From IMG/VR virus record IMGVR_UViG_2585427751_000008, positions 1 to 22,249 of that record: 22,249 bases of DNA. The stretch is one strand, 5' to 3'. Shown here piece by piece: positions 1-18,295 of this stretch. Numbering within the stretch: position 1 is the stretch's first letter; each line of letters starts with the position of its first letter. Under the pieces are notes generated by a model that saw nothing but the letters and a program-made list of their open reading frames with translations, was not told where the DNA came from and did not search any database. The DNA is from a virus. Taxonomy: Duplodnaviria > Heunggongvirae > Uroviricota > Caudoviricetes. The position numbers were made by a program, and so were the translations under genes.

Positions 1-1083
1 TTACAGCCATGTGATTTCTCCTACCGTCAGCAGCTCACTGTCTCCCGCCTGAACTGACGTCAGCGGACTGCGCACTTCAAAATCCTCCAGATTTTTCACC
101 CCTGCCACCGCCCGCCAGAAAGACGACGGCAGAACCAGACCGCCGGGCCGGGATTCGTTATACAACAGGTCGGTCAGCGCCTGTTTTACGGCCGCCTGAT
201 TCTCCGGTGTTTTCGGGATGATCCTGATGCTGAAGGGCACCGGCTTATTGGTCAGTTTAAACACGGTCACCGTCGGCCCCAGAGGCTGTCCGACAGGCTG
301 GCCGGTCGCCGGATCATCATGACTGCGGATATAATCCGCCACCCGCTGAACATCACCGTCACCGGGGAAAATATCCGGGTTATTATCCTGAACAAACGTT
401 ACCCCCACGCTGCCCGCCTGCGGCCATTCCGGGCGGCACCATGCCCGCGTCACGCCCGGCACTTCACGCGCCCAGCGTTCAAAATCATACTGCGTGCCGC
501 CGGACGGTGGATTCTGCACCCGGAAAACCAGACGGGAAAGCAGCTCCGGCACGGTTTCCACATCCGCACCACCGGTGATCCCCGTTCCGGTCACCGTGGC
601 CGTCTGGTTGATCCCCGCCTGCGGTGTGATAAATGTCAGTTTTGTCCCTGCCGGGGCATTCCCCGCACGACCGGCACTTTCGGCTTCCACACTGACATTC
701 AGCGTACCGGCCTTACCGGTCAGGGAGGTGGTGATACGGTAAACCACGCCATCACTTCGCTGGAGAAGCACACCTTCCTTGATCCCCGCATCCGTGGTCA
801 GCATCAGCTGAACCGGCCCGTCCCCCCGAGAGGCAGGCTTACGCATGACGCCCCAGAATGCACAGTGTTTCAGCAGTTCGGCTTCATCGGCTTCGGTCGG
901 GATGATCTGACGCGCAATCCAGGCCAGATGCTCATGCTCCTGAGCAGATAACCCTGCCTGAGCGTAAGCAATGGCATTCAGGGTGGTTTCATTCACACCC
1001 GGCTGCGAGCCGGGCAGGCGCTGGCTGATATCCTGCTGTGTCTGCGTGATTAACTGTGCCAGCGGTAAAGGCTGATAAGGCAT
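1..1083 (-). CDS. Baseplate J-like protein (Mu gp47 family)
   Basis: Complete 360 aa ORF (stop at 1-3). Translation carries the baseplate-J pattern, e.g. GGTQYDFERWAREVPGVTRAW followed by GSVGVTFV and a C-terminal LED...GEITW segment. Length and position after a gp46-like gene match Mu gp47. Confidence 0.75.
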   Translation of the reverse strand: MPYQPLPLAQLITQTQQDISQRLPGSQPGVNETTLNAIAYAQAGLSAQEHEHLAWIARQIIPTEADEAELLKHCAFWGVMRKPASRGDGPVQLMLTTDAGIKEGVLLQRSDGVVYRITTSLTGKAGTLNVSVEAESAGRAGNAPAGTKLTFITPQAGINQTATVTGTGITGGADVETVPELLSRLVFRVQNPPSGGTQYDFERWAREVPGVTRAWCRPEWPQAGSVGVTFVQDNNPDIFPGDGDVQRVADYIRSHDDPATGQPVGQPLGPTVTVFKLTNKPVPFSIRIIPKTPENQAAVKQALTDLLYNESRPGGLVLPSSFWRAVAGVKNLEDFEVRSPLTSVQAGDSELLTVGEITWL

Positions 1084-1520
1084 TACTCCCCCTTAAGATC
1101 AGCATAAAAAATCATGGGCCTCACTGAACCATCAGGCAGGGTTATGCGCACCGAAAGCACCAGCCGCGCGTGTCCCACACGTTCTGCATGACAGACCACG
1201 GATGACGCCACGCCATCCTGACTGAGCCAGCCCAGCGCCTCATCCGCGTAAGCACGGGCACGGCTTATCACCGAGGCCAGCGTTTTTTCCCGGCTGAGAA
1301 GCCACAGACGGGAGCCAATGGGGCGCGGGCGAAAACTGTCTCCCCACCATCCCCGGCGGTCGCGCGTACCGTCAGGGATTTCATCCGATGCCAGCGCCCG
1401 GCGGTCAGTAAACAGCGAAATCAGAACGGCCGTCAGCAGACTGTCATCCGTCAGCAGGTCGGCACCGTTCAGTTGCAGCGAACCGCATCCCTGATCCCAC
1501 ACAATTGCAATATCAGCCAT
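1083..1520 (-). CDS. Mu gp46-like baseplate protein
   Basis: 145 aa from ATG at 1518-1520 (the longer track ORF overlaps the upstream gene). Contains RRGWWGD and GSRLW motifs recalled from the phage GP46 family. Stop overlaps the start of the J-like gene by 1 nt. Confidence 0.55.
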   Translation of the reverse strand: MADIAIVWDQGCGSLQLNGADLLTDDSLLTAVLISLFTDRRALASDEIPDGTRDRRGWWGDSFRPRPIGSRLWLLSREKTLASVISRARAYADEALGWLSQDGVASSVVCHAERVGHARLVLSVRITLPDGSVRPMIFYADLKGE

Positions 1521-2127
1521 TCTCCGGCACTCCTGTCTTACTGCCTTCGCCGTTATCATGATGCACATGGCCGGAATACCGTATCCCTGCAATAACGGCA
1601 TCCGACATTGTGAACAGTCCCTGAGATTTCCCCGTACCCTCAAGCGCGAAATTACCCTTAACATGCAGGTTCTTATCCACCGTCACATTGCCCGTAAAGG
1701 TGGCTTCCGGCGTATCCACCCGCATCCCCTCGTCGGCGTAAATCTCCAGCATTTTGCATGTCACAATAATGCGGCCATCCTTTGTTAACCGTATCCGGTG
1801 CCCCTCATGGTGATACACCCCCGTATCTCCGGCTGTGAGTCCGGTCGGGCGGCTGCGCCGGTCTTCCACCACAAGCACCACAGTCTGATCCCGCTGTCCG
1901 CCCAGACAGGCAAAAAAGGTTTCCGCACCCGGCAGGGGAACGCTGATCTGCCCGTACTGCTGGGGACGCTCCACATCATCAAAGGTTTCACCATCCATAC
2001 CGGTGATTTGCACATTCTGGATTTTCAGCGTGTCCGTTGTGCCGGTCAGTACACCACGCCCGAACAGCAGACGAACACCCCGCATCACGGGGGCCAGAAG
2101 GCGGCTGATGACTTCGTCATTCATCAT
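1513..2127 (-). CDS. Baseplate assembly/spike protein (Mu gp45 / P2 gpV-like)
   Basis: 204 aa ORF. Size and position between gp44-like and gp46-like genes match the Mu central spike gp45. Start overlaps the upstream gene stop. Confidence 0.5.
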   Translation of the reverse strand: MMNDEVISRLLAPVMRGVRLLFGRGVLTGTTDTLKIQNVQITGMDGETFDDVERPQQYGQISVPLPGAETFFACLGGQRDQTVVLVVEDRRSRPTGLTAGDTGVYHHEGHRIRLTKDGRIIVTCKMLEIYADEGMRVDTPEATFTGNVTVDKNLHVKGNFALEGTGKSQGLFTMSDAVIAGIRYSGHVHHDNGEGSKTGVPENG

Positions 2128-3241
2128 TGAATTTAATCCCCTGTTTTTTCATCTGTGCCCGCACGAAGGCGTCCACGTCACCCGCATTTCCGCTTCCGCT
2201 GTTTCCCGGCTCTGCCGGAACAATAAAGCCGTCACGGGGTGCCAGAATCAGACGGGTGGTTTCGCCGTGATTTGCATCCAGCGAAAACTCCACCTGACAG
2301 ACAAGAAGATCACGCTCTTCCACTCCGGTGCGGGGAGCCGTGACAGCCGTCAGCAGGTTGATATCCCACAACTGGCCGTTCTCCCGAAACCAGTGCCGCA
2401 CGGTGGCTGTCAGGCGCACAGAGCGGGCAACCGCCCGGCGCATTTCCCGGACAGCCCTCTGGCGTGCACCGTCTGCATCAACAGCATGATCCGCCAGCAC
2501 AATTTTCGGTCTGTAACGGTGGATGGCACTGTCTGTCACCGTACCAACGGGTGCGGCCAGCGTTCCGGCTGTCAGTGCATCCCCGGCATGACCACCACCA
2601 CGCCCGTGCCCCCGTACACGGTATTCACTGTGGCGCAGACGGTGATCCACGTTGTGATCCAAATCCAGCAGATTTTCGCCCAGCGTCAGCGTGTCGCCAC
2701 GCTGACTGCAGGCCTGAGTGAAAACCAGTTCACCGGCGGCATTACTGGTTACCAGGACGCCTCTGTGTCTCGCGGCCCGTGTCAGCGCATCTGCCACGGT
2801 TTCTGAGTTTTCCAGTGTGAAGGTGGAAAAGGGCCGGGCTGCCGTTGCATCATTTACCTGCCAGCGCACCGTGACCCCGAACGGAGCACACAAATCTGAA
2901 GCAATGTGCTCCAGCGTGCGGTTCCTCCACTGGCTGCCCGGATGAATGGCTGAACAGTCCACCAGGTCACCGGTTTTATCCCGTCCGCTGAGCGTGATCT
3001 GAAAACGCGTGGCGCTGATGCGCTGCCGGACCTGATCCAGCCAGCCAGTGATCACAGGCTGACCGTCAATGCGCAATTCCAGAGACTGACCGGCACGGAC
3101 GGATGACGGAAGGCGTACACCGGGCATCATTACCCCCAGTTCAAAGGAGCCCGCCAGATGTTCAAGAGAGCGACGAACACTCACCGTCAGCCAGCCGGAA
3201 AAAATCTCACCGCCCAGATACAGTTCAACCCTGCTGCTCAC
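2117..3241 (-). CDS. Baseplate hub protein (Mu gp44 / P2 gpD-like)
   Basis: 374 aa ORF, close to the size of Mu gp44. Position immediately upstream of the gp45-like gene. Assignment is by synteny and size. Confidence 0.5.
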   Translation of the reverse strand: MSSRVELYLGGEIFSGWLTVSVRRSLEHLAGSFELGVMMPGVRLPSSVRAGQSLELRIDGQPVITGWLDQVRQRISATRFQITLSGRDKTGDLVDCSAIHPGSQWRNRTLEHIASDLCAPFGVTVRWQVNDATAARPFSTFTLENSETVADALTRAARHRGVLVTSNAAGELVFTQACSQRGDTLTLGENLLDLDHNVDHRLRHSEYRVRGHGRGGGHAGDALTAGTLAAPVGTVTDSAIHRYRPKIVLADHAVDADGARQRAVREMRRAVARSVRLTATVRHWFRENGQLWDINLLTAVTAPRTGVEERDLLVCQVEFSLDANHGETTRLILAPRDGFIVPAEPGNSGSGNAGDVDAFVRAQMKKQGIKFNDE

Positions 3242-4511
3242 TAATCACCTCCACTGAATGGCCTCCGGGAATGAACAGCGGATCAACAATACCGTTACGG
3301 CGCACAAAACGTTGCCAGCCGGTACTGTTCCCGGTGGCACGGTACAGGGTCACCAGTGCAGGCTCGGTGGTACGTACAGTCACTACTGTTGCACCGGGTA
3401 GCTGAACTCCCCGTGTATTCAGATCCTCTGTCAGTGCCAGTCTGGCATCACGAAGCGTCAGCGCCGTGGCGGTATACCCCTGCCCGGACAGTGTCATCAC
3501 CTGCCGTTCGAGCGCTTCGCTTAAGTCACGGTTAATGCGCTGAAGATCAACTGAACTTTCCAGCCAGACAGGCCAGGTACGGTGGGCTGCGTCACTGTCC
3601 GGCAGGGTTTCCTGACTGAGAACCTGATCCAGCAGTTTTCCCACGGTCTGTGCCTGGGCCACCACGGCAGCACTCTGCATTACCGCCCGTATCAGACGAA
3701 TATTCTTTTGTGCTGCCGGTGTCAGACCGATGAGAGTCTGCGGATTATCCTGCTCATCCAGCACGTAACGCAGGGAAGATAATGTCCTGTACAGTTGCGG
3801 CATTCCCTGAGAGACGGCGGATGTCGTCCGACCGATACTGCCTCCGGGCCGGGTATTCAGGCCTCCTGAAGACAGTGACGGCAGCGATGGCAGGGTGATC
3901 AGGGCACTGAAAAGCCCCGCAAAAGATGAGGCCATGCGGGAAGGTGCTGTCAGTAATGCCGTGGCATTCCCTTTCAGCGCCGTGAACGTGGCAGTAAAGG
4001 CACTGATATCCTGTACAATCCCCATGCCGGAAACGGCATTTTCCAGGGCGGACACCTTATCGCTGATGGTTTCGGTCATTGCCTGGACATCGTGCATTCC
4101 GTCAGAAATCACCGTCCAGCCCGCTTCCAGGGTTTCAAAAACCTTCCCGAGCGCGGTGGTACTCTTCTGCTCCAGAATGGCGGCCGTGTCCTGTGTGACA
4201 GCAGGTGCGGTACCGTCGCTGTCCACCACAATCTGCTTTCCCCACCATCCCAGCTTTTGCAGGCGTGGCGTCAGCGTGCGGATAAATTCTTTCTGTGAAA
4301 TCCCCTCATCAATGGCCCGCTGCACTTCGGCCTGTAATGTGGTCACCACATCCAGCCGTGCCGTTTTTGCTGCCGTGAATGAGCGGGCATGAACATCCGC
4401 GTCTGTTTCGAACCAGTTCCAGCTGATATGCGCCCCTTTGGCGCGGAAGTATGCCACCGTCTCTTTTGAGGGAAGCGTGGCGGCATAACCTAAATCAATC
4501 CCCTGAGCCAT
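3225..4511 (-). CDS. Phage structural protein with Mu F-like N-terminal region; possible fusion product
   Basis: 428 aa ORF without cysteines. The N-terminal ~100 aa (…HARSFTAAKTARLDVV…RAIDEGISQKEFIRTLTPRLQKLGWWGKQ) resembles the N-terminal region of Mu F-type head morphogenesis proteins as I recall them. The rest lacks the downstream F signatures I would expect and is Ala/Ser/Thr-rich. Sits where Mu has gp43. Confidence 0.4.
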   Translation of the reverse strand: MAQGIDLGYAATLPSKETVAYFRAKGAHISWNWFETDADVHARSFTAAKTARLDVVTTLQAEVQRAIDEGISQKEFIRTLTPRLQKLGWWGKQIVVDSDGTAPAVTQDTAAILEQKSTTALGKVFETLEAGWTVISDGMHDVQAMTETISDKVSALENAVSGMGIVQDISAFTATFTALKGNATALLTAPSRMASSFAGLFSALITLPSLPSLSSGGLNTRPGGSIGRTTSAVSQGMPQLYRTLSSLRYVLDEQDNPQTLIGLTPAAQKNIRLIRAVMQSAAVVAQAQTVGKLLDQVLSQETLPDSDAAHRTWPVWLESSVDLQRINRDLSEALERQVMTLSGQGYTATALTLRDARLALTEDLNTRGVQLPGATVVTVRTTEPALVTLYRATGNSTGWQRFVRRNGIVDPLFIPGGHSVEVISEQQG

Positions 4512-5055
4512 CCAGCATCCCCTTCATTTCCGCAGCAAACATGGCATCACTGAGCAGCGTCATCAGGCGGGAATCATCCATTTCACGGTAAAGGGCAGGC
4601 AGGTCTGCCAGCGCATCCGCCAGCCCCCGCGTTCTGATGGCATCAATGACCGGCTCCAGTACCGGGTCGATGGCCTCCTGTAACCGGCGGGCGGGCACCG
4701 CATCGCCCATGTCGTCCAGCTCATCACGCGGCGTGTTTTTCGCTTCCGGCAGTCGGGCTGAAAGCGCCGTCTGTTCTGTCTTTTCCTGTTTTTCCGGTAG
4801 CGTTTCCCTGTCAGGCATGGCCGGTTCATTACTGTTCTGACGGACACGGAATATGGCTTCACCGGGCGTGGGCTGTGGAATACCGGTCTGCTCCCGTACC
4901 CAGGGATCAGGAATATCCATCCCCGCACTGAGTTGCATCACCGCACTGGTTATTTTGGTGATATCCCCCGGTTCTTTGGTCTGGAAACAAATACGCGGCA
5001 GGCGACGGATATCAATGGCGTGGGCGGTGTTCAGGGCATACAGCGGATAGCTCAC
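4495..5055 (-). CDS. Hypothetical phage protein; possible C-terminal remnant of a Mu-type portal gene
   Basis: 186 aa ORF overlapping the downstream gene start by 17 nt. Acidic low-complexity stretch followed by LADLPALYREMDDSRLMTLLSDAMFAAEMKGM, which resembles C-termini of Mu-like portal (DUF935) proteins from memory. Start codon is uncertain (internal ATGs at 4938 and 4920). Confidence 0.3.
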   Translation of the reverse strand: MSYPLYALNTAHAIDIRRLPRICFQTKEPGDITKITSAVMQLSAGMDIPDPWVREQTGIPQPTPGEAIFRVRQNSNEPAMPDRETLPEKQEKTEQTALSARLPEAKNTPRDELDDMGDAVPARRLQEAIDPVLEPVIDAIRTRGLADALADLPALYREMDDSRLMTLLSDAMFAAEMKGMLDGSGD

Positions 5056-5272
5056 CGCGCAGGGTGGTGATTTCGATATTGAGTCTGTTCACCTCCTGCT
5101 GCGTGGGCAGGCCGGAAATCCGGCTCTCCACCCGCTCAACCCGATCGGAGAGTTTTTCAAAGGCCTCGCGGGGGACGAAGGTTTTGCGCATCAGCGCCAT
5201 GAAGATCCCCCCGGCCGTGGCCGTTGCCGACAGGATCGGCACAACATAATCTTTAACGATGCTGACCCACAT
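5012..5272 (-). CDS. Small membrane protein (N-terminal TM helix plus coiled coil), Mu gp25-like by position
   Basis: 86 aa with hydrophobic N-terminus VVPILSATATAGGIFMALM followed by a heptad-like region. Located downstream of the spanins in the lysis cassette. Confidence 0.4.
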   Translation of the reverse strand: MWVSIVKDYVVPILSATATAGGIFMALMRKTFVPREAFEKLSDRVERVESRISGLPTQQEVNRLNIEITTLRGELSAVCPEHRPRH

Positions 5273-5480
5273 GACCGGCCTCCATGATGTTCTGGCAGTT
5301 CACACAACGGATGGCATCCGGCACGGCAACCAGACGGGCAGCCGGAATGTCACCCCCGCAGTCCGCGCATACACGCCTGCCCGGTGTCTCCGCCACCCGG
5401 CGCTTACGTGTCAGCCGGTCACAAAGGGCGCGTTCTGTTGCCCGCTCCATGACAGCCTGAGCACAATCTGAATCATCCAT
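5253..5480 (-). CDS. TraR/DksA-family C4 zinc-finger protein
   Basis: 75 aa from ATG at 5478-5480. Contains CADC, a 17-residue spacer, then CVNC, which is the C-x2-C-x17-C-x2-C arrangement of DksA/TraR zinc fingers. Confidence 0.75.
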   Translation of the reverse strand: MDDSDCAQAVMERATERALCDRLTRKRRVAETPGRRVCADCGGDIPAARLVAVPDAIRCVNCQNIMEAGHVGQHR

Positions 5481-5490
5481 ACCTTTTTCC

Positions 5491-5862
5491 TTACTTCGTC
5501 TTTCCTGCCGGAACAGCAGGCGTTCCGGCCATATCAGTAAATTCATGTTGTCGCCGCGCCTCCAGACGACGAATACTGGCCTTGTCCACGTTGCAGTTCT
5601 TGATCACCGCCAGCAGTTGCAGGTTGTAAGTGACCGATGCCCCAAACGTGAACGGCTCCGGCGCAGGAGGGACCAGGCAGTCAGCCAGCCATTCAGCGGG
5701 GATCGGAACCGGCTGCACAGGCACGTATTTCACAGACGGCCCGGCGCACCCGCTCAGCCACATCATCAGGCACAGGAACAGAGGCCGCAGGCACTGTTGC
5801 CAGCGACCGGCGGACAACGCTCTGCTGCTCCTCGCTGTGCTGAATGTTCTGTTGCTTTTCAT
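5491..5862 (-). CDS. Outer-membrane spanin (o-spanin) lipoprotein
   Basis: Hydrophobic signal region ending in lipobox LSGC, followed by a proline-rich mature region (PVQPVPIPAEW…PPAPEP). Overlaps the 3' part of the i-spanin gene in another frame. Start at ATG 5860-5862 is a choice among alternatives. Confidence 0.55.
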   Translation of the reverse strand: MKSNRTFSTARSSRALSAGRWQQCLRPLFLCLMMWLSGCAGPSVKYVPVQPVPIPAEWLADCLVPPAPEPFTFGASVTYNLQLLAVIKNCNVDKASIRRLEARRQHEFTDMAGTPAVPAGKTK

Positions 5863-6043
5863 TCGTGGCCGCCTTGCTGATTTGTGAAATGAGTTGCAGG
5901 GTGCGTTGCTGGTTTGCCAGCACCAGACGGGCTTCGTCCCGTTCACGCACAAGCACATGATTATTGTCCTCAAGGCGCTGCGTCTTCTGGTGCATTCCCC
6001 ATACCACGGCAGCCAGCACGCTCATCACCCCCAGCGCCGCCAT
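5693..6043 (-). CDS. Inner-membrane spanin (i-spanin, Rz-like)
   Basis: N-terminal hydrophobic segment then a long charged coiled-coil-like region (QKTQRLEDNNHVLVRERDEARLVLANQQ…). ATG at 6041-6043 is preceded by GGAGG; the longer track ORF would overlap the endolysin. Confidence 0.5.
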   Translation of the reverse strand: MAALGVMSVLAAVVWGMHQKTQRLEDNNHVLVRERDEARLVLANQQRTLQLISQISKAATNEKQQNIQHSEEQQSVVRRSLATVPAASVPVPDDVAERVRRAVCEIRACAAGSDPR

Positions 6044-6155
6044 ACAGCCTCCGGCAATCAGGGCCGGTAAGGGATTGTTCACCGCAGCCACAGCACACCC
6101 CGCAGCAGCACAACGGCACACAGCAGCGCAATCATGAGCGGTCGCCAGAAGCGGT

Positions 6156-6656
6156 TCAGACTTTCGGCAAATCGTAACGACATAACCATTCATCCGCCGA
6201 ACGGCGGGCCTCAAGACCGGGGAGTTTTACCCCCTTTGAATAAATCCAGCGGATATACTGCTTACAGGACGCGGGCATCTGCCCGGCATTGATAAGGCGC
6301 AGGAGCGTGGAGTTGCGAAAGTTCGTTTCACCGGCCCAGAAAATCCAGGAGGCCAGCGCCACCGTCTGACCACGGGTAAGCGGCACCTGAACATGACGAT
6401 CGATAGCCGCAAAGGCCCATTTCATGTCCTTTTCCAGCAGCTCCAGACACTCTTCATCAGTTTTTGTCATCCCCGGTTTCACATCCGGGCCGGTATGGCC
6501 GTAACAGATGGTGGGGGTGCCGGTGGGATCAATGTACGTGGTGTTTTCTTTCCCTTCCCAGTAGCCGGTGTAGTGCGTGGCAATAGTGAACGTCCCGGCT
6601 CCGGCCAGAACAAGGGCAATCAGCTTTTTACGCAGTGGCGCGGGGAGTTTTGGCAT
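6156..6656 (-). CDS. SAR endolysin (GH24 lysozyme family, P21 R-like)
   Basis: 166 aa. N-terminal Gly/Ala-rich weakly hydrophobic segment (LIALVLAGAGTFTIATHY) typical of a signal-anchor-release domain. Catalytic region with E…D…T spacing (EGKENTTYIDPTGTPTICYGHTG) and NFRNSTLLRLIN, close to the P21 lysozyme motifs. Confidence 0.85.
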   Translation of the reverse strand: MPKLPAPLRKKLIALVLAGAGTFTIATHYTGYWEGKENTTYIDPTGTPTICYGHTGPDVKPGMTKTDEECLELLEKDMKWAFAAIDRHVQVPLTRGQTVALASWIFWAGETNFRNSTLLRLINAGQMPASCKQYIRWIYSKGVKLPGLEARRSADEWLCRYDLPKV

Positions 6657-6727
6657 TGTTACGCTGTCTCATGGTGTTCTCTGAGCCAGCGTAACCGTGG
6701 AAAAAAGGGGGCAGGATTTGCGGAATA

Positions 6728-7150
6728 TCAGAAAAGCCGGGGCTGCGTGCGCTCCTGATGCAGGCGACGCTGGTTGCGGATAACGGAGTAAATCTGCGTC
6801 TCTGACATCTGGTAATGGCGGCGCAGGGTTTCAATTTTTTCACCCTGGCTCCAGCGGGAAAAAATCTCATTATTGCGCAGTTCGGTGAAAAGGGATTCAC
6901 CGACCGGGAGATAATAACCACGCCCGCCCATGTACCCGGCCTGTGCGGCCGCAACCTTACGGGCAAGCATTCCCGCCTGAGCAGATTCAATCCCCTGACG
7001 GTGCAGTTCAGCACTGATCACATCAACCAGGTCACGCAGCGTGCCGGGCCAGTTCTTTTTCAGCTCATCATCAGGAATATCATCCAGACGGTCAATCAGC
7101 GCGTGCAGCTGTTCGCTGTCACCAAACATGCTCATCTGTGTTTCAGCCAT
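6728..7150 (-). CDS. Mor/C-family transcriptional activator (middle/late gene activator)
   Basis: 140 aa with the C-terminal pattern of Mu Mor/C proteins (GRGYYLP…NNEIFSRW…RHYQMSETQIYSVIR). Located between the GemA-like gene and the endolysin, as mor/C are in Mu. Only one family member is present. Confidence 0.7.
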   Translation of the reverse strand: MAETQMSMFGDSEQLHALIDRLDDIPDDELKKNWPGTLRDLVDVISAELHRQGIESAQAGMLARKVAAAQAGYMGGRGYYLPVGESLFTELRNNEIFSRWSQGEKIETLRRHYQMSETQIYSVIRNQRRLHQERTQPRLF

Positions 7151-7182
7151 ACCCGCCTCCGGTCACCATTACACAGGGCAAG

Positions 7183-7214
7183 TTTAAAATAAAAATCCCG
7201 CGCTGTGGCGGGAT
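7183..7214 (-). terminator. Intrinsic terminator between early operon and Mor/C gene
   Basis: Inverted repeat ATCCCGC (7195-7201) / GCGGGAT (7208-7214) with a 6-nt loop. On the minus strand the stem is followed by a U-rich run (complement of 7183-7194). Confidence 0.5.
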
Positions 7215-7220
7215 TTGGGG

Positions 7221-9307: not shown

Positions 9308-9310
9308 GCA

Positions 9311-9826
9311 TCACCCCCTGACTCGCTTTTCAGCAGCATAAAACTCATCAGACAGAATTTCGGTCATTTTCTGATTTGCGGGTTTTACACCGCACTGAAG
9401 ATAAATCACATCGTCAACGCAGAACCACTCCACAGGGCCATACAGGATTGCTGAGAAATCAATGCCCAGCCAGAACAACAGGGCATCGGTTCTGGCATAC
9501 GTGACGGGCGAATATTCACGCCACAGACTGTTCAGTTCGTCAGAGGCAGTGCGCAGGGCTTTGGGAATGCGCGATGTGCGCGGCGTGCAGCTCCAGCCAT
9601 TCGACGCAGTCGGTTTTCGCCATAAATCACGATGAAAAGGATATTTGTCATTCGTAAAACGCAGCCCCTTAAAACAAAAACCGCTGATACCGGATACAAA
9701 TACCGACCGGCACTCAACATTCAGCACGGCCTCAAGGCGTTTTGCCTCATCCTTAACTTGCTGGCAGTCCTGCTGATATTTTTGCCACGCAGCCAGCGCG
9801 GAAGGGTTCGATGTTTTAAAGAACAT
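9311..9826 (-). CDS. Hypothetical early-region protein
   Basis: 171 aa ORF in the tightly packed early operon (1-nt overlap with the upstream gene). No motif recognised. Confidence 0.4.
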   Translation of the reverse strand: MFFKTSNPSALAAWQKYQQDCQQVKDEAKRLEAVLNVECRSVFVSGISGFCFKGLRFTNDKYPFHRDLWRKPTASNGWSCTPRTSRIPKALRTASDELNSLWREYSPVTYARTDALLFWLGIDFSAILYGPVEWFCVDDVIYLQCGVKPANQKMTEILSDEFYAAEKRVRG

Positions 9827-10359
9827 TACGCCACCTCCGCAGATATCCCGGCAGGCGCTGCCGTCCGGTCAACAATCAGGTAACGCAGAACATGTTCGGT
9901 GATATTCCAGCCGCTTAAACCGCAGATAATGGTCCCCAGGCGAATGTCGATATACGCCATCACAAACTGGGGCACACCTTCTTTCATTGCCTGCTCATCA
10001 ACTTCAGCCACCACATAAACGGTTTCACAGGTCAGAACGCCCTGCGCAAATTCCCACGCCATCGACGGAATATCATGCCCTTCAACCCACGGCAGGGATT
10101 TTCTGAAGCTGCACCACTGAACATCATCAGCCACAGACTCCTGGCGGCATTTGCGACGAACCGGCTGTACCGGGCGGGGACGCGGAATATCATAAAAACC
10201 GTTACATTCTGTCAGCACACCGGCATCAACCGCATCACGCAGAAAATAGACCATCGAGGATGGCGGCATATTCATTCTTTGAGCCAGAACGCCGCAGGTC
10301 AGACGCCCGTAAATGCTCAGCCAGTTTTTAACCCCTTCAAGCACTTTTGCATCTATCAT
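9826..10359 (-). CDS. Hypothetical early-region protein, possible N-terminal winged-helix domain
   Basis: 177 aa. The N-terminal ~50 aa (…LTCGVLAQRMNMPPSSMVYFLRDAVDAGVL) looks like a winged-helix DNA-binding fold. Weak assignment. Confidence 0.35.
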   Translation of the reverse strand: MIDAKVLEGVKNWLSIYGRLTCGVLAQRMNMPPSSMVYFLRDAVDAGVLTECNGFYDIPRPRPVQPVRRKCRQESVADDVQWCSFRKSLPWVEGHDIPSMAWEFAQGVLTCETVYVVAEVDEQAMKEGVPQFVMAYIDIRLGTIICGLSGWNITEHVLRYLIVDRTAAPAGISAEVA

Positions 10360-10362
10360 GAA

Positions 10363-10905
10363 TTATTCCTCCGTCAGCGCCACATATTCAGAATGTTTAA
10401 TTTCCTGACATTCTTCAGGAATACGCCCGTTTATTTCCCTGCCATAAGCACCTACTTTAAACACCACGCACAGGGCATCACGGGAGAGAGACGGGGTCCA
10501 CCAGGAGTCTGTGTTAAACATGGAGGGCATTCTCATTACCCCCAGCTTTTCACAGAGCCAGACAAGGAAATCAGGTCGCTTTCTTAAATCGCGTTCAGCG
10601 GCTTCAACCATTGTGGCAATCGCCGGTCCTTCAGGGCATGACTCATCAGGTCTGGCTATAAAGCACTGTCCGCTACCGATAAAAGCCACATCATCGCGCT
10701 TACGCCAGCCCGCAGGCAGAGCACCGGCAAAATAAAACTCACTGATTCTGTCCATGGCGAACGGCTTTAAGCGCAATCCGGCAGCGCCTGTATTTTTCAG
10801 TAACGTCCGAAGAATACTGTTGCGTAGCGGTAAAACAGTCTGTTGATATTTGGTGAAATATTTATTTGTCTGTGCTCTGTCTAATTTGAAATAAAAATAT
10901 GCCAT
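10363..10905 (-). CDS. Hypothetical early-region protein
   Basis: 180 aa ORF directly downstream of gam in the early operon. No motif recognised. Confidence 0.4.
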   Translation of the reverse strand: MAYFYFKLDRAQTNKYFTKYQQTVLPLRNSILRTLLKNTGAAGLRLKPFAMDRISEFYFAGALPAGWRKRDDVAFIGSGQCFIARPDESCPEGPAIATMVEAAERDLRKRPDFLVWLCEKLGVMRMPSMFNTDSWWTPSLSRDALCVVFKVGAYGREINGRIPEECQEIKHSEYVALTEE

Positions 10906-11002
10906 ATTTCCTGTTCCTTATTTTCAGTTTACAGGCGCAAGCAGCCCTCTGACGCGAGCGCCATAATTAAAACAATGTGATATCTAAAGATTTAATGCGG
11001 TG

Positions 11003-11533
11003 TTATTTATTCAGTCCGGCGTCCTGTTCAAAAGGCTCGACAGAAAAACTTTCAGCGCCTTTATTCACCTTAATACCGGCAATACCCTTTACCGCATCCG
11101 GTTCCGCCAGAATGGCTTGCTTATTCACTTCCTCTTTCGTGCGGATGAAACGCTCAAGCCCCATACGGCGCAGCATTTCAATCACACCTTCCACATCACG
11201 GCTGACGCTGCATGATGGCTTTTCCAGCCGCCATGACACCGTTCCGGTTGTCAGATTGGCAGTTTTGGTTTCGCCACCGTTCGTCAGCTCATCGCGGTTG
11301 GTTTTGCACCAGTCATGAATCCCCTTAAAAAGCACTTTGATTTCTTTTTTAAGGTTTTCAATCTGCGGCGTATAACGGGCGGTGATTTCTGCCACTTCAT
11401 CATTCATTGCCGTTTCCAGGCGCAGCGCCTCTCGCTGCATATCCCCAAAGCGACGGATATCGCGACTGACTTCTTCCCGGGTCTGCGGTGCCGCCTCGGC
11501 TGCGGCCTTTAATTTTGTAACGCGTTTAGCCAT
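11003..11533 (-). CDS. gam: Host-nuclease inhibitor Gam (Mu Gam family)
   Basis: 176 aa. Close match to recalled Mu Gam sequence, e.g. GDMQREALRLETAMNDEVAEI, NRDELTNGGETKTANLTTGTVSWR, LERFIRTKEEVNKQAIL, SVEPFEQDAG. Confidence 0.9.
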   Translation of the reverse strand: MAKRVTKLKAAAEAAPQTREEVSRDIRRFGDMQREALRLETAMNDEVAEITARYTPQIENLKKEIKVLFKGIHDWCKTNRDELTNGGETKTANLTTGTVSWRLEKPSCSVSRDVEGVIEMLRRMGLERFIRTKEEVNKQAILAEPDAVKGIAGIKVNKGAESFSVEPFEQDAGLNK

Positions 11534-11544
11534 TTTGTTTTTCC

Positions 11545-11838
11545 TTATTGCAGTGTGCCTGATGCTTTATGCACGCGGTGGCGTTTAATGATGGCATCCG
11601 CCCCAAAAGCCTGTACAGATGCCTGAAATTCCGCTGAGAGAAACTGAATAATTGCAGGACTGTGATACTGGAGAATACTTGCATAAACGTCACAGAGTGA
11701 CGTCGGGCTGTTATCCGTATCACGTTCTGTTTTCACATCCACTCCAATCTTTTCATGCACTTCAACACAGTCATTGCCTGCCAACTTTTCGTCATGCGAA
11801 ACATGATTAAATTCAAAAATAACGCGTACTTTGCTCAT
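11545..11838 (-). CDS. Hypothetical small protein, paralogue of the adjacent upstream ORF
   Basis: 97 aa from ATG at 11836-11838. N-terminus MSKVRVIFEFNHV parallels MSKVVRIIFEYKEHV of the neighbour. Confidence 0.4.
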   Translation of the reverse strand: MSKVRVIFEFNHVSHDEKLAGNDCVEVHEKIGVDVKTERDTDNSPTSLCDVYASILQYHSPAIIQFLSAEFQASVQAFGADAIIKRHRVHKASGTLQ

Positions 11839-11842
11839 GGAA

Positions 11843-12115
11843 TTACCCCTGCTGATTAAATTCATTACCTTTAATAACCCCGGAACGCATGCTCATATCT
11901 TTCATGAGCGCACTGGCTTTCATTGCCACAAGTTCAGCAAAGTCTCTGCTTTCCGCGAGCATAACCACCCCAAAAATCATGGCGGGTCCATCACCTTTCT
12001 GCTTTATCCCGGTTGAACGTATGTCCAGACTTACCCCCATGCGCACTGTTCCATCAGGGTTTTTATGGATAACGTGCTCCTTGTATTCGAAAATAATGCG
12101 TACGACTTTACTCAT
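11843..12115 (-). CDS. Hypothetical small protein, paralogue of the adjacent downstream ORF
   Basis: 90 aa. N-terminal similarity to the neighbouring ORF indicates a tandem duplication. Confidence 0.4.
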   Translation of the reverse strand: MSKVVRIIFEYKEHVIHKNPDGTVRMGVSLDIRSTGIKQKGDGPAMIFGVVMLAESRDFAELVAMKASALMKDMSMRSGVIKGNEFNQQG

Positions 12116-12363
12116 CCTCTGGTCCTCGTTCTGTTTGGATAACTGACCCGGCGTCTGACCTCACGGCAGAACCGAATCATGGCATTAAAGGCTTCTTCCT
12201 CCGTCACCGCTTCCGGTATCACCATTCGTGTGCGGTCATTAAATTCAAAAAGTAAATCGCCACATTCTTTATTTTCGGCCAGTGAAATCACCTTCACGTT
12301 ATCGAAATTAACCAGGTAAAAGCGTCCGTAAATATCAGGAATATTAAATACCGCCATAATCAC
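12112..12363 (-). CDS. Hypothetical small protein immediately downstream of B
   Basis: 83 aa ORF whose start overlaps the B stop codon. Position corresponds to the kil region of Mu, but no sequence similarity is claimed. Confidence 0.35.
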   Translation of the reverse strand: MIMAVFNIPDIYGRFYLVNFDNVKVISLAENKECGDLLFEFNDRTRMVIPEAVTEEEAFNAMIRFCREVRRRVSYPNRTRTRG

Positions 12364-13292
12364 ACCTGTGAGAGTAATTCAGGGTTGGTATAAACCTCTT
12401 TAAAGGCCGCATTAATATGTTTTTCTGTCAGCGCCGCGCCTTCACCGCTGGCGGTGAGCCACGCCTGGTTAAGCGTATGTGTCAGAACGCGTAACGCTCC
12501 CGGTTTTTCAGCGATAGCCTGCATGACGGCCAGCTCGGCCTCACCACTGATACCCCATGCCCTGGCAATGGCCAGCACATCCGCCTTTTTAGCCTTGCGA
12601 AGTTGTTTTGTACGGGCAAGACGACTGAACAGGCGCGATAAGTCATCAACGGCGCGGCGTCCACCCTTAAACAGTCCGCGCGGGTTACCAATAAGCACCA
12701 TCCCGATCCCCGTGGCGTCCTGGATTGCACGCAGTTGTTCCAGACCGTCAATACCCAGATGATCCGCCTCATCCACAATCACCAGTCCACGCGTTCCCGT
12801 CAGGCGACGGCGGATGGCGCGGGATAACGCCCCCTTGTTCGCGCGGGTGTAATCAATCCCCAGCGCATCGGCCAGCTCCAGCAGACACTCCGTGACGCTG
12901 GAGTGCGCGGGTGACAGGGTGATCATCCAGGTGTTTGGTTGCTCCTGGCAGTAATTACGGGCGGTGGCCGTTTTACCCACACCCGGTACGCCCACAATGA
13001 CGTTAATACAGCCCATCAGGCGAACCGCCTGAAACAGTGCGCGCAGCTCCTGGACTGTCTGCGTTTCCACAAACTGCGGCGGTTCCGGCAGTGCGCTTTG
13101 TTTATTCCAGTTCTCATACCAGGAACGCAGGGAAGCAGCCACAGCGGCGTTATCGCCTTTATATTTCCCCTTGCGGAAAGCCGATAATGTGCCGTCGGAA
13201 ATTCCCGCCTCTCTGGCGATGGCATACTGCGTCAGTACGCCGCCATCAATAAGTTCATCAATGGTCTTGATTACATCGTTAATATCAGTCAT
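12360..13292 (-). CDS. B: Transposition ATPase B (MuB-like AAA+ protein)
   Basis: 310 aa. N-terminal HTH-like region, Walker A GVPGVGKT, Walker B LVIVDEAD. Size and position downstream of A match MuB. Confidence 0.9.
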   Translation of the reverse strand: MTDINDVIKTIDELIDGGVLTQYAIAREAGISDGTLSAFRKGKYKGDNAAVAASLRSWYENWNKQSALPEPPQFVETQTVQELRALFQAVRLMGCINVIVGVPGVGKTATARNYCQEQPNTWMITLSPAHSSVTECLLELADALGIDYTRANKGALSRAIRRRLTGTRGLVIVDEADHLGIDGLEQLRAIQDATGIGMVLIGNPRGLFKGGRRAVDDLSRLFSRLARTKQLRKAKKADVLAIARAWGISGEAELAVMQAIAEKPGALRVLTHTLNQAWLTASGEGAALTEKHINAAFKEVYTNPELLSQV

Positions 13293-13327
13293 ATTATTAA
13301 CCTCTCATTTGATACCTTGTTTAATCA

Positions 13328-13364
13328 AATAACCTGAGTCGCCGCTCGGGTTATTTTTTTATTT
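13328..13364 (+). terminator. Intrinsic-terminator-like hairpin in the A-B intergenic region, oriented antisense to the transposase operon
   Basis: Stem AATAACCTGAG (13328-13338) pairs with CTCGGGTTATT (13345-13355), 6-nt loop, then a T-run on the plus strand (13356-13364). The minus-strand downstream sequence is not U-rich. Confidence 0.35.
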
Positions 13365-15454
13365 CAGGCCAGTGGATCACTTTCTTTTAATTTTGCTTCG
13401 AGCAGTTGCAATCCCCGCTGGAAATTACGCTCGTATTCTTCATCAGGTTCATCGTCAGCGACCGGTTGCTGAACGGTCACCGTATTACCCACAGGGCGGT
13501 ATATGTTTTCCAGCCATGGCTCCTGCGGCTTGTGCTCCAGCACGTTGACAACCTCATCCTCGGCATCACGGATTTTTTCCTCTGCGCGTTTACGCATACC
13601 TTTAAGGCGCTGTTGCTGTTTGTAGTATTCCGCGCTGACCGGGAAGGCTTCGCGTTTATTGCCGTCCCATACCGCCTCGCAAATCACGCTGCCATCCGGG
13701 CGACGAACGGTAATTCGTTCGGCATCATGAATGTCATAGCTGATAAGCACCTTGCGGCCATGCTCATCACGCAGCTCGGGCGCGTAGTAAATATTATTCA
13801 GCCAGCGTATTTCACAGCGTCTTACAGGGCGCTCCACCATCGGCCGGAACATGTCCCGCAATTCCACATCGGACAGCCATTCAATTTCCGTATCCTCTTC
13901 TGCCAGGCGTTTTTTTCTGAACTCCGCCGGGCTGTAATGCTTGCCGTTCGGCTTCACCGGTAATTCATCGTGCGGCCGGTTGTTGTACCACTCAACACCG
14001 TCACGAATGGCATCAATCAGTTCAGACCAGGACGGTAAATCACGCATCGCTGACTGCTGCCGGGCGTTCAGCCGTTTGCCCTGTTGCAGGGCAGTAAATG
14101 CCGAGCGTAAATCGCGGTTGGTTTTACGTAACGTCTCGCGATCTGCACCTTTCCCGAAATAGGTGCGGTATCTGCGGGCTATGCGCATCGGTAATGTGCG
14201 GTTAAGCCGTTCGATAATGCCCCGTCCCTGCGGGTTACCGGCAATTCCGGTCGGGTGATTAATCCCCAGTCGCGGCAGTATCCCCACAATCTCTTTATCC
14301 AGGATGTCGGCCGTTTCCCCGGAGCCGTTATCCGAGTAATACAGAAACGGTTTGCCGTGATAGCGAATACCGTGCTGTATGGCGCCGGCTACGGCGAAAA
14401 CATTTTCAGCCAGGTCAAGGCTCCAGCCCACCACAAAGCGCGTGCCACCGTCGATAACAAAGGTCACTTCCGGTGCAAATGGCCGCCCGTGAACCGGGTG
14501 CCTGCATTTCAGCTTCATGCCGTGACCGTCACCAATCCAGACATAATTAACCGGCATTTTTGACCAGTCGCGGCGCGTGAATCCCTCAAGCTGGCGGTAT
14601 TCACTGCCGGTCACCCGGCCTTTTTGTTTCACCACTTCCGGCAATTTTTTCATTGCGCGGCGAATAGTGTCATAAGAGGGCATGATATCGAGCATATAAG
14701 GCTCATCAGCGTGCCGGTGCTGCCATTCGGCGACAAAATCCTCGTAAGCCTCGGTCATTGGTCGGCCGTTTGACTGGCGATACTGCGCCAGAAATTCGGG
14801 CAGCCAGTTAATATCTTCGGCTTTTATTTCCTGGCGTTTACCCGGTGCCAGTAAAAGCAGGCGTTCAGCGGCGTTCTGTGCCTTGTTAAAGGCCGCAATC
14901 CAGCGTTTCAGCGTGATTTCACTCAACGCGCGGCGGTTTCCCTTTTTGGCGTTCGCTGTCTCAACCATTGCCACAATGCGCTCGTCCAGTTGTGAGCGTG
15001 ACAGACGGTCAACAATAAACCGGATAGCTTTAGCGCAGCTGAAACCGGGTTGTTGCGCGAATTTCAGCACCTCGCTGACAATCGCGATTCGTGCATCAGC
15101 CACCTGCCGCTGGTTTTCAGTCAGGGCATTGAGGCGTTCGACCATCAGTTGTGGTGAACCGCGATATGCCTCCACCACATCAACCACGTCAGGTGAGCGT
15201 CTGGCCTTTGTCACCACCGGAGCCGGTGATTCGTCGGCTTTTTGCGTCATCAGTTGCAGGGCGTAGCGTTCACGCAATGCCTGCTGCGTCACTTCAGGTA
15301 AACAGTCGATGCTGTATTCAGTTGCTTTAGAGCCTGAGCGACGACGGGAACAACAGCTTTTCCCTTGTGCGTAACGTTGTAATGCCTGGCGAATACCTTT
15401 TGTTGTAGCAGGCATTCCGGGCGCGCCAATCAGTTCTTTTGCAATGACATACAT
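13364..15454 (-). CDS. A: DDE transposase A (MuA family)
   Basis: 696 aa. Catalytic-core motifs in MuA-like order and spacing: WIGDGH, YYSDNGS, NPQGRGIIERLNRT. Followed by B and preceded by a Ner-like gene. Confidence 0.9.
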   Translation of the reverse strand: MYVIAKELIGAPGMPATTKGIRQALQRYAQGKSCCSRRRSGSKATEYSIDCLPEVTQQALRERYALQLMTQKADESPAPVVTKARRSPDVVDVVEAYRGSPQLMVERLNALTENQRQVADARIAIVSEVLKFAQQPGFSCAKAIRFIVDRLSRSQLDERIVAMVETANAKKGNRRALSEITLKRWIAAFNKAQNAAERLLLLAPGKRQEIKAEDINWLPEFLAQYRQSNGRPMTEAYEDFVAEWQHRHADEPYMLDIMPSYDTIRRAMKKLPEVVKQKGRVTGSEYRQLEGFTRRDWSKMPVNYVWIGDGHGMKLKCRHPVHGRPFAPEVTFVIDGGTRFVVGWSLDLAENVFAVAGAIQHGIRYHGKPFLYYSDNGSGETADILDKEIVGILPRLGINHPTGIAGNPQGRGIIERLNRTLPMRIARRYRTYFGKGADRETLRKTNRDLRSAFTALQQGKRLNARQQSAMRDLPSWSELIDAIRDGVEWYNNRPHDELPVKPNGKHYSPAEFRKKRLAEEDTEIEWLSDVELRDMFRPMVERPVRRCEIRWLNNIYYAPELRDEHGRKVLISYDIHDAERITVRRPDGSVICEAVWDGNKREAFPVSAEYYKQQQRLKGMRKRAEEKIRDAEDEVVNVLEHKPQEPWLENIYRPVGNTVTVQQPVADDEPDEEYERNFQRGLQLLEAKLKESDPLA

Positions 15455-15455
15455 A

Positions 15456-15704
15456 TCATGACGCCTTTCTCATATAGCTCTTAACCTGGTATCTACTGGG
15501 CCAGATTTCTTCAGGCGATACCCCAAGAGCATCAGCAATTATTTGCTGATACGGGCGGCAAGGAGTACGTAATACGCTTTTCAGCGAGTCCCTGCTGTAA
15601 CCAGCCTTTAAAGATAAAGAGCGCAGTGATAAGCCAGCCATGTGTAGGCGCGCCTTGATGATTTCTGGCGGCCAATCGTGATCTGAAACTTCTCTTCTAC
15701 TCAT
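15456..15704 (-). CDS. ner: Ner-like DNA-binding regulator (Ner/Nlp family)
   Basis: 82 aa with the Ner/Nlp signature (…LSLRSLSLKAGYSRDSLKSVL…QQIIADALGVSPEEIWPSRY). Immediately upstream of A and divergent from the repressor. Confidence 0.8.
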   Translation of the reverse strand: MSRREVSDHDWPPEIIKARLHMAGLSLRSLSLKAGYSRDSLKSVLRTPCRPYQQIIADALGVSPEEIWPSRYQVKSYMRKAS

Positions 15705-15724
15705 ACTTCCTCTATCCTAAAAAG

Positions 15725-15810
15725 TTACCCGCGCGGATATTCGTACGGATATCTGTACGGGTAAATAATGCATCACTAAAAATACCAAATCAAGGTATTT
15801 TTGGTATTTT
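15725..15810. promoter_or_regulatory. Divergent promoter/operator region between ner and the repressor gene
   Basis: 7-bp inverted repeat TTACCCG (15725-15731) / CGGGTAA (15758-15764) enclosing tandem GGATATTCGTACGG (15735-15748) and GATATCTGTACGG (15748-15760). A second inverted repeat AAAATACCAAA (15779-15789) / TTTGGTATTTT (15800-15810). Confidence 0.45.
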
Positions 15811-15893
15811 CCTTGTTTTTTCTTTTATCCTTATTTTTCAATTGGATACACAGAAAGAAACCTTTCATTAGAAAAGCACCAAGAGGTATCTTT

Positions 15894-16424
15894 ATGTCGC
15901 AGGGAAAAGAACCTGTTATTGAACGTATTGGGATGCTTACAAAACGCTATCCTTCAAGAAGTGCAGCTGCCAGAGCGTGGGGAATTAATATCAACACATT
16001 AAACAGCTATTTCAAGGGAGGGCAAACACAACCAGCCCCAAGAGAAAGCATTCTTATACGAATTTCTAAAAGTGAAGGTGTTAGTCTTGAGTGGCTTAAA
16101 GAGGGCAAGGGAGAATCACCAAAAGACATTGGTATTTCTGGTGATTTTGGTTGTTCTGGTGATAAGGGAGATCAGCTTACACAGATGCTTTCATTCCTCA
16201 CGAAAGACGAACGAGAACAACTAACCAATCTCCTTGCTCGCAAAGGTGTAGAGACTGTTCTGACACTACTGGATAAAGAAAACCAGGATTTATTACAACT
16301 AGAGGGCAGGAAGCGCCTGGCTGCTTTGATGATTGTGGATATGCCTGACGATAGTGTCAGAGAGATTTTGGAAAAAACCGAGACAAGTAGGCAATCAAAT
16401 CCGGTAGAATCTAAAGCGGGTTAG
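15894..16424 (+). CDS. Phage repressor (c-type, HTH DNA-binding domain plus coiled-coil C-terminus)
   Basis: 176 aa from ATG at 15894, preceded by AAGAGG at 15881-15886. The track ORF starting at 15801 adds an implausible hydrophobic extension. HTH-like segment SRSAAARAWGININTLNSYF…VSLEWLKEGKG. Transcribed toward the phage end, divergent from ner. Confidence 0.65.
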   Translation: MSQGKEPVIERIGMLTKRYPSRSAAARAWGININTLNSYFKGGQTQPAPRESILIRISKSEGVSLEWLKEGKGESPKDIGISGDFGCSGDKGDQLTQMLSFLTKDEREQLTNLLARKGVETVLTLLDKENQDLLQLEGRKRLAALMIVDMPDDSVREILEKTETSRQSNPVESKAG

Positions 16425-16501
16425 TTTGGCGAGACTGGCCCGTATTTTAGTTACCATATAGATTTAATGAAGTTTTAAACGCTTTAAAAGGTTTAGATCA
16501 C

Positions 16502-16669
16502 AGTATCAAAAGTTTTGCCGATTTTAGAATAAACGATTAATTATTGCACAATCGGTATCAAATAGACTTTTCGCGCCCAGATTGAAATCACCTGTTTTAT
16601 TTCAGTATCTTACAGGTGATTTCACCTCCTTTCACTAAAACCCTTGTCGGTATCAAATGATTCACCTGG
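16502..16669. repeat. Terminal repeats of the prophage end (candidate transposase-binding sites)
   Basis: Perfect 12-bp direct repeat TCGGTATCAAAT at 16552-16563 and 16647-16658, with a related AGTATCAAAAG at 16502-16512. Motif TGATT(T)CACCT at 16617-16627 and 16658-16668, with an inverted copy GAAATCACCTG at 16584-16594. Resembles the Mu end-site consensus with its TTCAC core. Confidence 0.5.
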
Positions 16670-16675
16670 TTATAA

Positions 16676-17179: not shown

Positions 17180-17186
17180 TGTTACT

Positions 17187-17213
17187 GCAGGATGGCGTTC
17201 ATGCGCCATCCTG
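17187..17213 (+). terminator. Stem-loop downstream of glpQ (probable terminator)
   Basis: Inverted repeat CAGGATGGCG (17188-17197) / CGCCATCCTG (17204-17213) with a 6-nt loop, 8 nt after the glpQ stop. The downstream T-run is weak. Confidence 0.4.
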
Positions 17214-17220
17214 TCTCATA

Positions 17221-18292: not shown

Positions 18293-18295
18293 TCG

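Follow-up and report, generated by a model that had tools for sequence, protein, structure and literature searches.

What has interrupted glpQ in one lineage of Escherichia coli, by what route did it arrive, and in what condition is it now? The question is raised by a stretch of 22,249 nucleotides (the window; IMG/VR record IMGVR_UViG_2585427751_000008) in which a Mu-like transposable prophage runs directly into the 3' part of this chromosomal gene. Very probably, a phage of the type of Sp18, a prophage of E. coli O157:H7 Sakai, transposed into glpQ of a single E. coli lineage (source assembly GCA_000714025.1), and the copy now found there is internally deleted. Positions 35-22283 of JOQJ01000005.1, a draft contig of that assembly which starts 34 nt left of the window, match the window at 100% identity, and the window proteins carry the names of E. 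coli isolates "4-203-08_S3_C1" and "4-203-08_S4_C3".

The window falls into two parts, unlike in both composition and origin: phage DNA at 1-16674 and E. coli chromosome at 16675-22249. In the chromosomal part, the last 167 codons of glpQ are followed by a yfaH/LysR pseudogene remnant, inaA, yfaE, nrdB and nrdA, which is the downstream context of intact genomes. All 5,426 complete E. coli genomes searched match this part, with the match always starting at window base 16674, and three complete genomes are 100% identical over the chromosomal stretch queried. The glpQ remnant is likewise 100% identical to intact alleles, including that of AST198. It has no promoter, no signal peptide and no N-terminal half of the GDPD domain, the 191 N-terminal codons being gone, and a full GDPD domain is thereby absent from the window.

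Host homology begins at 16674/16675 and phage homology to relatives stops at 16672-16674; from these alignments we place the last phage base at 16674. The initial annotation, made from the letters of the sequence, had proposed a Mu-like transposable prophage within glpQ with its end near 16672, which agrees to within 2 nt with a phage that runs to 16674 and is followed by glpQ from codon 192 onward. The DNA left of about 16674 aligns to Sp18-type prophages and not to the chromosome, and no full-length glpQ is contiguous with the fragment, as homology to the gene starts at codon 192.

The phage-glpQ junction was present in none of the 5,426 complete genomes. It was found in an independent sibling assembly (JOQI01000030.1, locus L013), which differs from the window by 28 mismatches and one gap over 15.6 kb. 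On the unseen side, the predicted reciprocal junction consists of glpQ codons 1-192 followed by TATAGCG..., encoding a 228-aa fusion protein. An exact look-up of this fusion with the AST198-type tail gave no match in the protein collection, and a homology search with the same fusion returned only ordinary or truncated GlpQ proteins. A look-up with sequence variants found one variant of the predicted 228-aa GlpQ(1-192)-mom-end fusion in the collection. Its DNA is a 1,205-bp metagenome scaffold (ENA ERZ28622921, locus L022) with the 3' end of glpT upstream, which reads ...CGCTGGAAGTG/TATAGCGCGGCGATTTTTTTGATACCG... across the junction (marked here by a slash); the string expected for the unseen side of the source genome is ...CGCTGGAAGTG/TATAGCGCGGCG. 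The identical position and orientation suggest that the scaffold derives from the same insertion event.

The source assembly is a short-read draft, and the break of the contig 34 nt to the left of the window suggests that a repeat exists elsewhere in the genome, so the junction might be thought an assembly chimera formed at that repeat, with glpQ in truth intact. We give this explanation almost no credence. A chimera would have to recur in a second assembly that shows 28 sequence differences from the window in 15.6 kb, fall precisely on a conserved phage terminus common to five relatives, and be complemented at exactly the right base by the reciprocal junction in an unrelated metagenome assembly.

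The same junctions define the target-site duplication. The empty site reads CGCTGGAAGTGCTGAAG (L001), the left junction ...GGAAGTG/TATAGCG (L022) and the right junction ...GGTTATA/AGTGCTG (window), pointing to a duplication of AGTG. For two relatives, TOE17 (duplication CATG) and FORC_069 (CTAA), the flanks were joined into a 300-nt composite that was searched against uninterrupted genomes. Both composites align end to end to 296 nt, and therefore exactly four host bases were duplicated. The three other relatives were read directly and gave CCCG (AST198), TATA (O157 ECP19-798) and TTTA (Sakai Sp18). Six insertions at six sites, AGTG in the window included, are thus consistent evidence that Sp18-type insertions duplicate 4 bp and not the 5 bp of Mu, which the initial annotation had led us to expect. 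A 5-bp duplication with the end definitions moved by one base was considered and rejected, as the adjoining T and A never match the empty site.

In all relatives the c-side terminus reads ...TCAAATGATTCACCTGGTTA(Y)A and the mom-side terminus TATAGCGCGGCGATTTTTTTGATACCG...; written inward from TATA (TGTA where the c-side Y is C), both ends have the TTTGATACCG motif at positions 18-27. The mom-side terminus is TA in all copies examined. The c-side dinucleotide is polymorphic, being TA in the window, TOE17 and FORC_069 and CA in AST198, O157 ECP19-798 and Sakai. The terminal repeat motifs noticed earlier correspond to three direct copies of YRGTATCAAA in the last 175 bp (16501-16510, 16553-16562 and 16648-16657; 1.34 matches expected in the whole 22-kb window), which are putative A-binding sites. 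Neither a duplication length for Sp18-type phages nor a TA terminus was found stated in the searchable literature. The 4-bp duplication and TA terminus are the sole mildly unexpected result on this family, and the duplication length matters for delimiting Sp18-type prophages and for modelling their transpososome.

Between the second and first of these end motifs, counted from the phage terminus, lies a perfect 13-nt inverted repeat (16583-16595 and 16612-16624; TGAAATCACCTGT ... ACAGGTGATTTCA) with a 16-nt spacer. It is kept in AST198 and TOE17 and could be a host-factor or transposase site. The feature boundaries of Sp18 in the Sakai record lie 1 nt (c side) and 5 nt (mom side) away from the ends given here.

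Three points weigh against a simple insertion into glpQ as described. The window stops inside the prophage, and the other prophage end lies on neither window nor contig, leaving the mom end and the glpQ 5' half of the source genome unseen. The glpQ::mom-end junction, which the initial annotation had expected beyond the other end and which does occur at the predicted nucleotide, stems from a different sample (ERZ28622921) and not from the source genome. Finally, base 16674 (A) fits both the phage terminus and the host, and for the window insertion alone a 5-bp duplication, AAGTG, would be compatible with the alignment. If the other prophage end were joined elsewhere than to glpQ codons 1-192, the event would be a Mu-mediated rearrangement and not a simple insertion.

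We class the element, on nucleotide identity, as an Sp18-type prophage, of a family already described from STEC and other E. coli. Sp18 of Sakai is Mu-like, is predicted to be intact and has its DNA packaged (PMC2669165); Sp18-like phages occupy strain-specific sites (PMC7430833, PMC10132054), with published copies at prpD-prpE (PMC7430833) and inside Stx phages (PMC10132054). Window 1-16672 aligns with Sakai Sp18 in four collinear blocks of 89.6-96.3% nucleotide identity that cover every retained segment. The two share their termini (TATAGCGCGG... and ...CACCTGGTTA(Y)A), the cluster of 696-aa transposases and the order c-ner-A-B-...-Gam-...-GemA-Mor-lysis. The window differs from Sakai Sp18 in its c-side TA, as in TOE17 and FORC_069, in place of CA. 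Identity to the AST198 copy is 98.1-99.9% over window 1-15288; identity to the FORC_069 copy is 98.6% over 12210-16674 and 92-96% elsewhere. The window copy thus reads as a mosaic, closest to AST198 at 1-12220 and closest to FORC_069 at 12210-16674, which holds B, A and the immunity region. Coverage of the element by any one deposited phage record reaches 74% at most, with Stx-phage records that contain an inserted Mu-like phage ranking first.

Relatives were present in 249 of the 5,426 complete genomes, and each relative examined occupies a different locus: yghD/gspM in AST198, citD/citE in TOE17, elfC in FORC_069, a sulfatase gene in O157 ECP19-798 and sorM in Sakai. Further copies lie inside Stx phages in deposited records. 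Unlike these relatives, the window copy is in glpQ, a site that carries no such copy in any of the complete genomes. The varied loci, together with the absence of the glpQ junction from those genomes, support random, lineage-specific transposition, as the initial annotation had supposed.

An opposing view would make glpQ a preferred target of Mu-like phages, as a hot spot or a specific site. It draws on a second prophage in glpQ, a different and genuine Mu-type phage (L020; GCA_902844505.1, CADGWA010000066.1) inserted 141 bp upstream of the window site, with its junction near locus position 9862. We regard this view as improbable. Among very many genomes these are two events, which differ in nucleotide position and in the phage involved, whereas relatives occupy many other loci and the complete genomes have no Sp18-type copy in glpQ. 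This does not look like a preference, and glpQ is dispensable, so that insertions in it are tolerated. The two insertions in this dispensable gene are probably coincidence. The L020 prophage has the same orientation, with the repressor end beside the glpQ 3' part; it encodes Kil, an A protein of 660 aa with DDE_2 and HTH_Tnp_Mu_2, and a c repressor with the Mu DNA-binding domain.

The prophage was implied to be intact when the integration was first called recent, which did not hold. Deletions were sized against the full-length FORC_069 copy (39,244 bp) and also compared with AST198, and their contents were read from the FORC_069 gene table. Unlike its Sp18 relatives, the window copy lacks about 14.9 kb of FORC_069 content, comprising packaging, head and most tail genes, through three internal deletions (Table 1). 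Deletion 1 runs from the head-morphogenesis gene, which lost its C-terminal three-quarters, to the DNA-circularisation gene, which lost its 5' quarter; between them it took out the virion-morphogenesis, protease/scaffold, major-head, sheath, tube, tail-assembly and tape-measure genes along with several small genes. It left an in-frame fusion open reading frame (ORF) of 428 aa, in which about 100 N-terminal residues are of a Mu F-like head-morphogenesis protein (PHROGs minor head protein, residues 3-94) and about 329 C-terminal residues are of the DNA-circularisation/baseplate-hub protein (baseplate hub, residues 98-425). Deletion 2 removed the C-terminal part of DUF2730, VpaChn25_0724, a gp27-like gene, a small ORF, the large terminase and the N-terminal two-thirds of the portal.

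A complete head, tail and packaging module is therefore not to be found in the window element, which on its gene content is a defective derivative. It kept the repressor, Ner, A, B, Gam, GemA, Mor, the lysis genes, the baseplate genes within the window and the complete left end. The Ner-A-B-Gam-GemA-Mor set with a divergent repressor that had been read from the sequence is thus present throughout by Pfam and PHROGs. If the unseen right part resembles FORC_069, the element would measure about 24.4 kb.

The short late region might be only apparent, the window ending early in a prophage that is intact and inducible; c, ner, A and B are of full length, the left end is complete, and Sakai Sp18 is itself predicted intact with its DNA packaged (PMC2669165). 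This is very improbable. The missing 14.9 kb lies within the window, where two fusion ORFs mark the breakpoints, and the same deletion junctions are seen in several independent assemblies. None of the 5,426 complete genomes spans the junctions of deletions 1 and 2. The two fusion ORFs are found again in sibling assemblies, in several Logan assemblies and in one metagenome, and one contig (L008), from another sample, has deletion 1 and has kept the portal and terminase region. The recurrence of the fusion ORFs and this intermediate indicate that the deletions are real and arose stepwise.

Loss of the morphogenesis block seems to be recurrent in the Sp18-type family. In the cit operon of TOE17 (L003, 15225-15688) an independently deleted Sp18-type copy has a DNA-circularisation remnant joined to VpaChn25_0724; a second Sp18-type copy elsewhere in TOE17 has the portal region intact.

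The preferred history of the locus would run as follows. A, with help of the B ATPase, would have joined both phage ends to cuts staggered by 4 nt in glpQ, duplicating AGTG and splitting the gene after codon 192. The periplasmic phosphodiesterase GlpQ would be lost, because the two halves are separated by the prophage, each with a partial GDPD domain, and the 3' fragment has neither signal peptide nor promoter. The upstream gene glpT should be spared, as glpQ is the distal and last gene of the glpTQ operon. Three internal deletions would have occurred at short microhomologies, presumably after the insertion. With terminase, most of the portal, capsid, sheath, tube and tape-measure lost, the element would therefore form no virions on its own; it may yet be able to transpose, or a helper may package it.

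Engineered mini-Mu elements move or are packaged with a full-length helper. By analogy, the element could have reached glpQ already deleted, as a natural mini-Mu moved or packaged by a full-length Sp18-type helper, in place of decaying where it now stands. This is unlikely, though to be taken seriously. The retention of A, B, c, ner and the left end fits such an arrival, some genomes carry at least two Sp18-type copies, and hence potential helpers (TOE17), and contig L008 with its intact portal and terminase region implies that deleted forms have a history of their own. Against it, the deleted element was seen at no site besides glpQ, and its deletion junctions were absent from all 5,426 complete genomes; the short contigs with deletions stop before the element ends and so give no insertion sites. 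Insertion followed by decay in place remains our preferred order. Compared with laboratory mini-Mu, the window element is alike in being internally deleted and in keeping c, ner, A, B and at least the left end, and may be told apart by its natural origin and by its retained lysis and in-window baseplate genes.

How far the element stands from Mu itself can be judged from its genes. It is Mu-like in the broad sense, having the domains of A, a MuB-type AAA+ protein encoded after A, a divergent repressor/Ner switch with end motifs, and many unrelated insertion sites in its family flanked by a short target duplication. As in Mu and D108, divergent repressor and ner genes at the left end are followed by A, B and semi-essential early genes with Gam and GemA, and then by Mor, lysis genes and Mu-type baseplate genes; three end motifs lie at the left end. 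B, encoded directly downstream of A, is 44% identical to Mu-type B.

Transposase A has the same length as in intact relatives and falls in the same 90% cluster as the O157 Sp18 transposase. It was at first thought to have a different N-terminus from MuA. Instead, residues 6-142 match the Mu end-binding domain PF02316, HTH_Tnp_Mu_1 (29.3 bits, cut-off 23.3; E 1e-6), and A aligns with Mu-type A from residue 1; it is the catalytic core that diverges. Identity to Mu-type A is 22%. Mu-transpos_C (PF09299) is matched at residues 533-593 (63.3 bits, cut-off 21.7; E 2e-17) and rve below its cut-off, and Pfam gave no match to DDE_2 or HTH_Tnp_Mu_2, both of which are present in the Mu-type A of L020. 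Among solved structures A matched only retroviral integrase cores, with no MuA chain among them. In JOQI01000030.1 (locus 6690-8779) the transposase is called as two ORFs of 274 and 424 aa; A may truly have decayed there, or a second Sp18-type copy may have brought noise into the assembly.

The immunity repressor was first described as having a CI-like helix-turn-helix. Its residues 20-79 do match the repressor PHROGs 4, 2328 and 8 (1e-4 to 4e-6), which stands behind the repressor part of that description; HTH_3 (13.7 bits, cut-off 23; E 0.067) and Phage_CI_repr (13.1 bits, cut-off 22; E 0.13) both stay below threshold, and the CI-like part is weakly supported. Pfam gave no match to an S24 autocleavage domain, and a search of its sequence against solved structures returned only chance antibody matches. 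PF02316 is not matched in the repressor even at E<=10, as against 2.8e-8 for the Mu-type c of L020, and the two repressors have no pairwise similarity. By sequence, the repressor is not of the Mu c type. The true start of its gene is an ATG giving 176 aa, relatives annotating a 531-nt gene, and the 207-aa ORF from a TTG over-extends. In the adjoining control region, a 20-nt imperfect palindrome with a tandem repeat (CGGATATTCGTA/CGGATATCTGTA) at 15725-15764 and a 12-nt inverted repeat at 15775-15805 are candidate operators.

The low identity of A, its missing Mu domains and its retroviral-type structure matches, a repressor without the Mu DNA-binding domain, the 4-bp duplication and the TA in place of CA at the mom-side terminus all separate the element from Mu and D108, and Mu DNA among deposited phage records gave no megablast match to the window. 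The element is accordingly best described, as the initial annotation had it, as a relative of Mu and not as Mu.

At its plainest, the locus records an ordinary event, in which a prophage family already described has inserted once more at a strain-specific site, here in a dispensable gene. It is also a well-resolved case in which a Mu-like phage inactivated a gene and the prophage then decayed step by step, and the retained c-ner-A-B-end set makes the copy a candidate natural mini-Mu. Tentatively, and with somewhat less than even confidence, we suggest that Sp18-type transposases use a 4-nt stagger in place of the 5 of Mu, act on ends finishing in TA and have a core nearer to retroviral and IS3-type integrases than to MuA. 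If this is true and undocumented, the Sp18-type family would form a branch of transposable phages with a mechanism of its own. The window copy could, in addition, be a natural mini-Mu that moves with a helper.

Table 1. Features of the window by position. Gene identities are in part Pfam matches precomputed for the identical contig JOQJ01000005.1 and otherwise Pfam/PHROGs matches of window proteins.
Feature	Position	Strand	Basis or remark
Baseplate J / Mu gp47-like (360 aa)	1-1083	-	Pfam Baseplate_J; annotation of identical AST198 and TOE17 proteins
GP46 baseplate gene	1083-1520	-	Pfam GP46; relatives' annotation
Mu gp45-like V, baseplate	1513-2127	-	Pfam Phage_Mu_Gp45; relatives' annotation
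gpP/gp44-like baseplate gene	2117-3241	-	Pfam GpP-like; relatives' annotation
In-frame fusion ORF (428 aa), product of deletion 1	3225-4511	-	PHROGs and BLAST breakpoints
Deletion 1	junction within 4207-4220		10,441 bp vs FORC_069 (8.2 kb vs AST198); 6-14 bp microhomology
Portal remnant, C-terminal (186 aa), DUF935/Mu portal	4495-5055	-	PHROGs portal 5.6e-39; clusters with 529-554-aa DUF935 proteins
Truncated DUF2730	5012-5272	-	Pfam on identical contig; relatives' annotation
Deletion 2	junction 5048/5049		3,911 bp
TraR/DksA zinc-finger	5253-5546	-	Pfam on identical contig; relatives' annotation
LysC/Rz1-like	5491-5733	-	Pfam on identical contig; relatives' annotation
DUF2570	5693-6091	-	Pfam on identical contig; relatives' annotation
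Lysozyme	6156-6656	-	Pfam on identical contig; relatives' annotation
Mor late-transcription activator (140 aa)	6728-7150	-	PF08765; phrog_532, 2.6e-44
GemA / Mu gp16 family (169 aa)	7221-7730	-	PF06252; "gp16 family protein" in relatives
Semi-essential early region	7727-10905	-	small ORFs and a 180-aa ORF; Pfam/PHROGs, annotation of relatives
SANT/Myb-like DNA-binding protein	8756-9307	-	within semi-essential early region
Mu gp12-like	9311-9826	-	within semi-essential early region
Gp11_C	9826-10359	-	within semi-essential early region
Gam host-nuclease inhibitor (176 aa)	11003-11533	-	PF07352, 4.2e-40
Three small early ORFs	11545-12357	-	deletion 3 junction within
Deletion 3	junction within 12210-12223		512 bp; two small genes present in relatives lost
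B, MuB-type AAA+ transposition protein (310 aa, full length)	12360-13292	-	PF09077 Phage-MuB_C 88.6 bits, 2.5e-25; AAA_22
Transposase A (696 aa, full length)	13364-15454	-	phrog_310, 4.5e-212
Ner-like early repressor (82 aa)	15456-15704	-	PF13693 HTH_35, E 2.5e-19; phrog_769
c/ner control region, divergent	15705-15893		repeats seen in sequence
Immunity repressor (176 aa)	15894-16424	+	phrog_3037, 8.8e-62
Left (c-side) phage end	16425-16674		ends ...CACCTGGTTATA; terminal sequence common to AST198, TOE17, FORC_069, O157 ECP19-798 and Sakai Sp18
Right-hand copy of target-site duplication AGTG	16675-16678		phage ends at 16674, then AGTGCTGAAG
glpQ 3' fragment	16676-17179	+	codons 192-358 plus stop; PF03009 profile positions 132-244 of 244 only

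Two ORFs near the junction were set aside. The minus-strand ORF at 16670-17035 has no family matches and is taken to be spurious. The 167-aa GlpQ C-terminal ORF was rejected as a marker of the insertion, as most contigs with it have a glpQ frameshift or an IS1 insertion. It is called in many assemblies (L011, L014, L016, L017 and others), where the cause is either an apparent frameshift, through a 1-nt gap among the final codons of the 5' half of glpQ, or an IS1 splitting glpQ; in both cases the start codon that comes next is the GTG of codon 192.

A tRNA scan of the window found none. Full-length relatives have a "tRNA-OTHER" between the head- and virion-morphogenesis genes (L002 20321-20400; L004 19013-19092; L021 18255-18334), a feature that lies in the stretch taken out by deletion 1 and is missing from the window. 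In the chromosomal part, naRNA4 (CssrE, a REP-derived nucleoid-associated RNA; Rfam 76.4 bits) lies between nrdB and nrdA at 19837-19907 (+), a normal E. coli feature, and short REP-like repeats near it give self-matches at 19778-19955.

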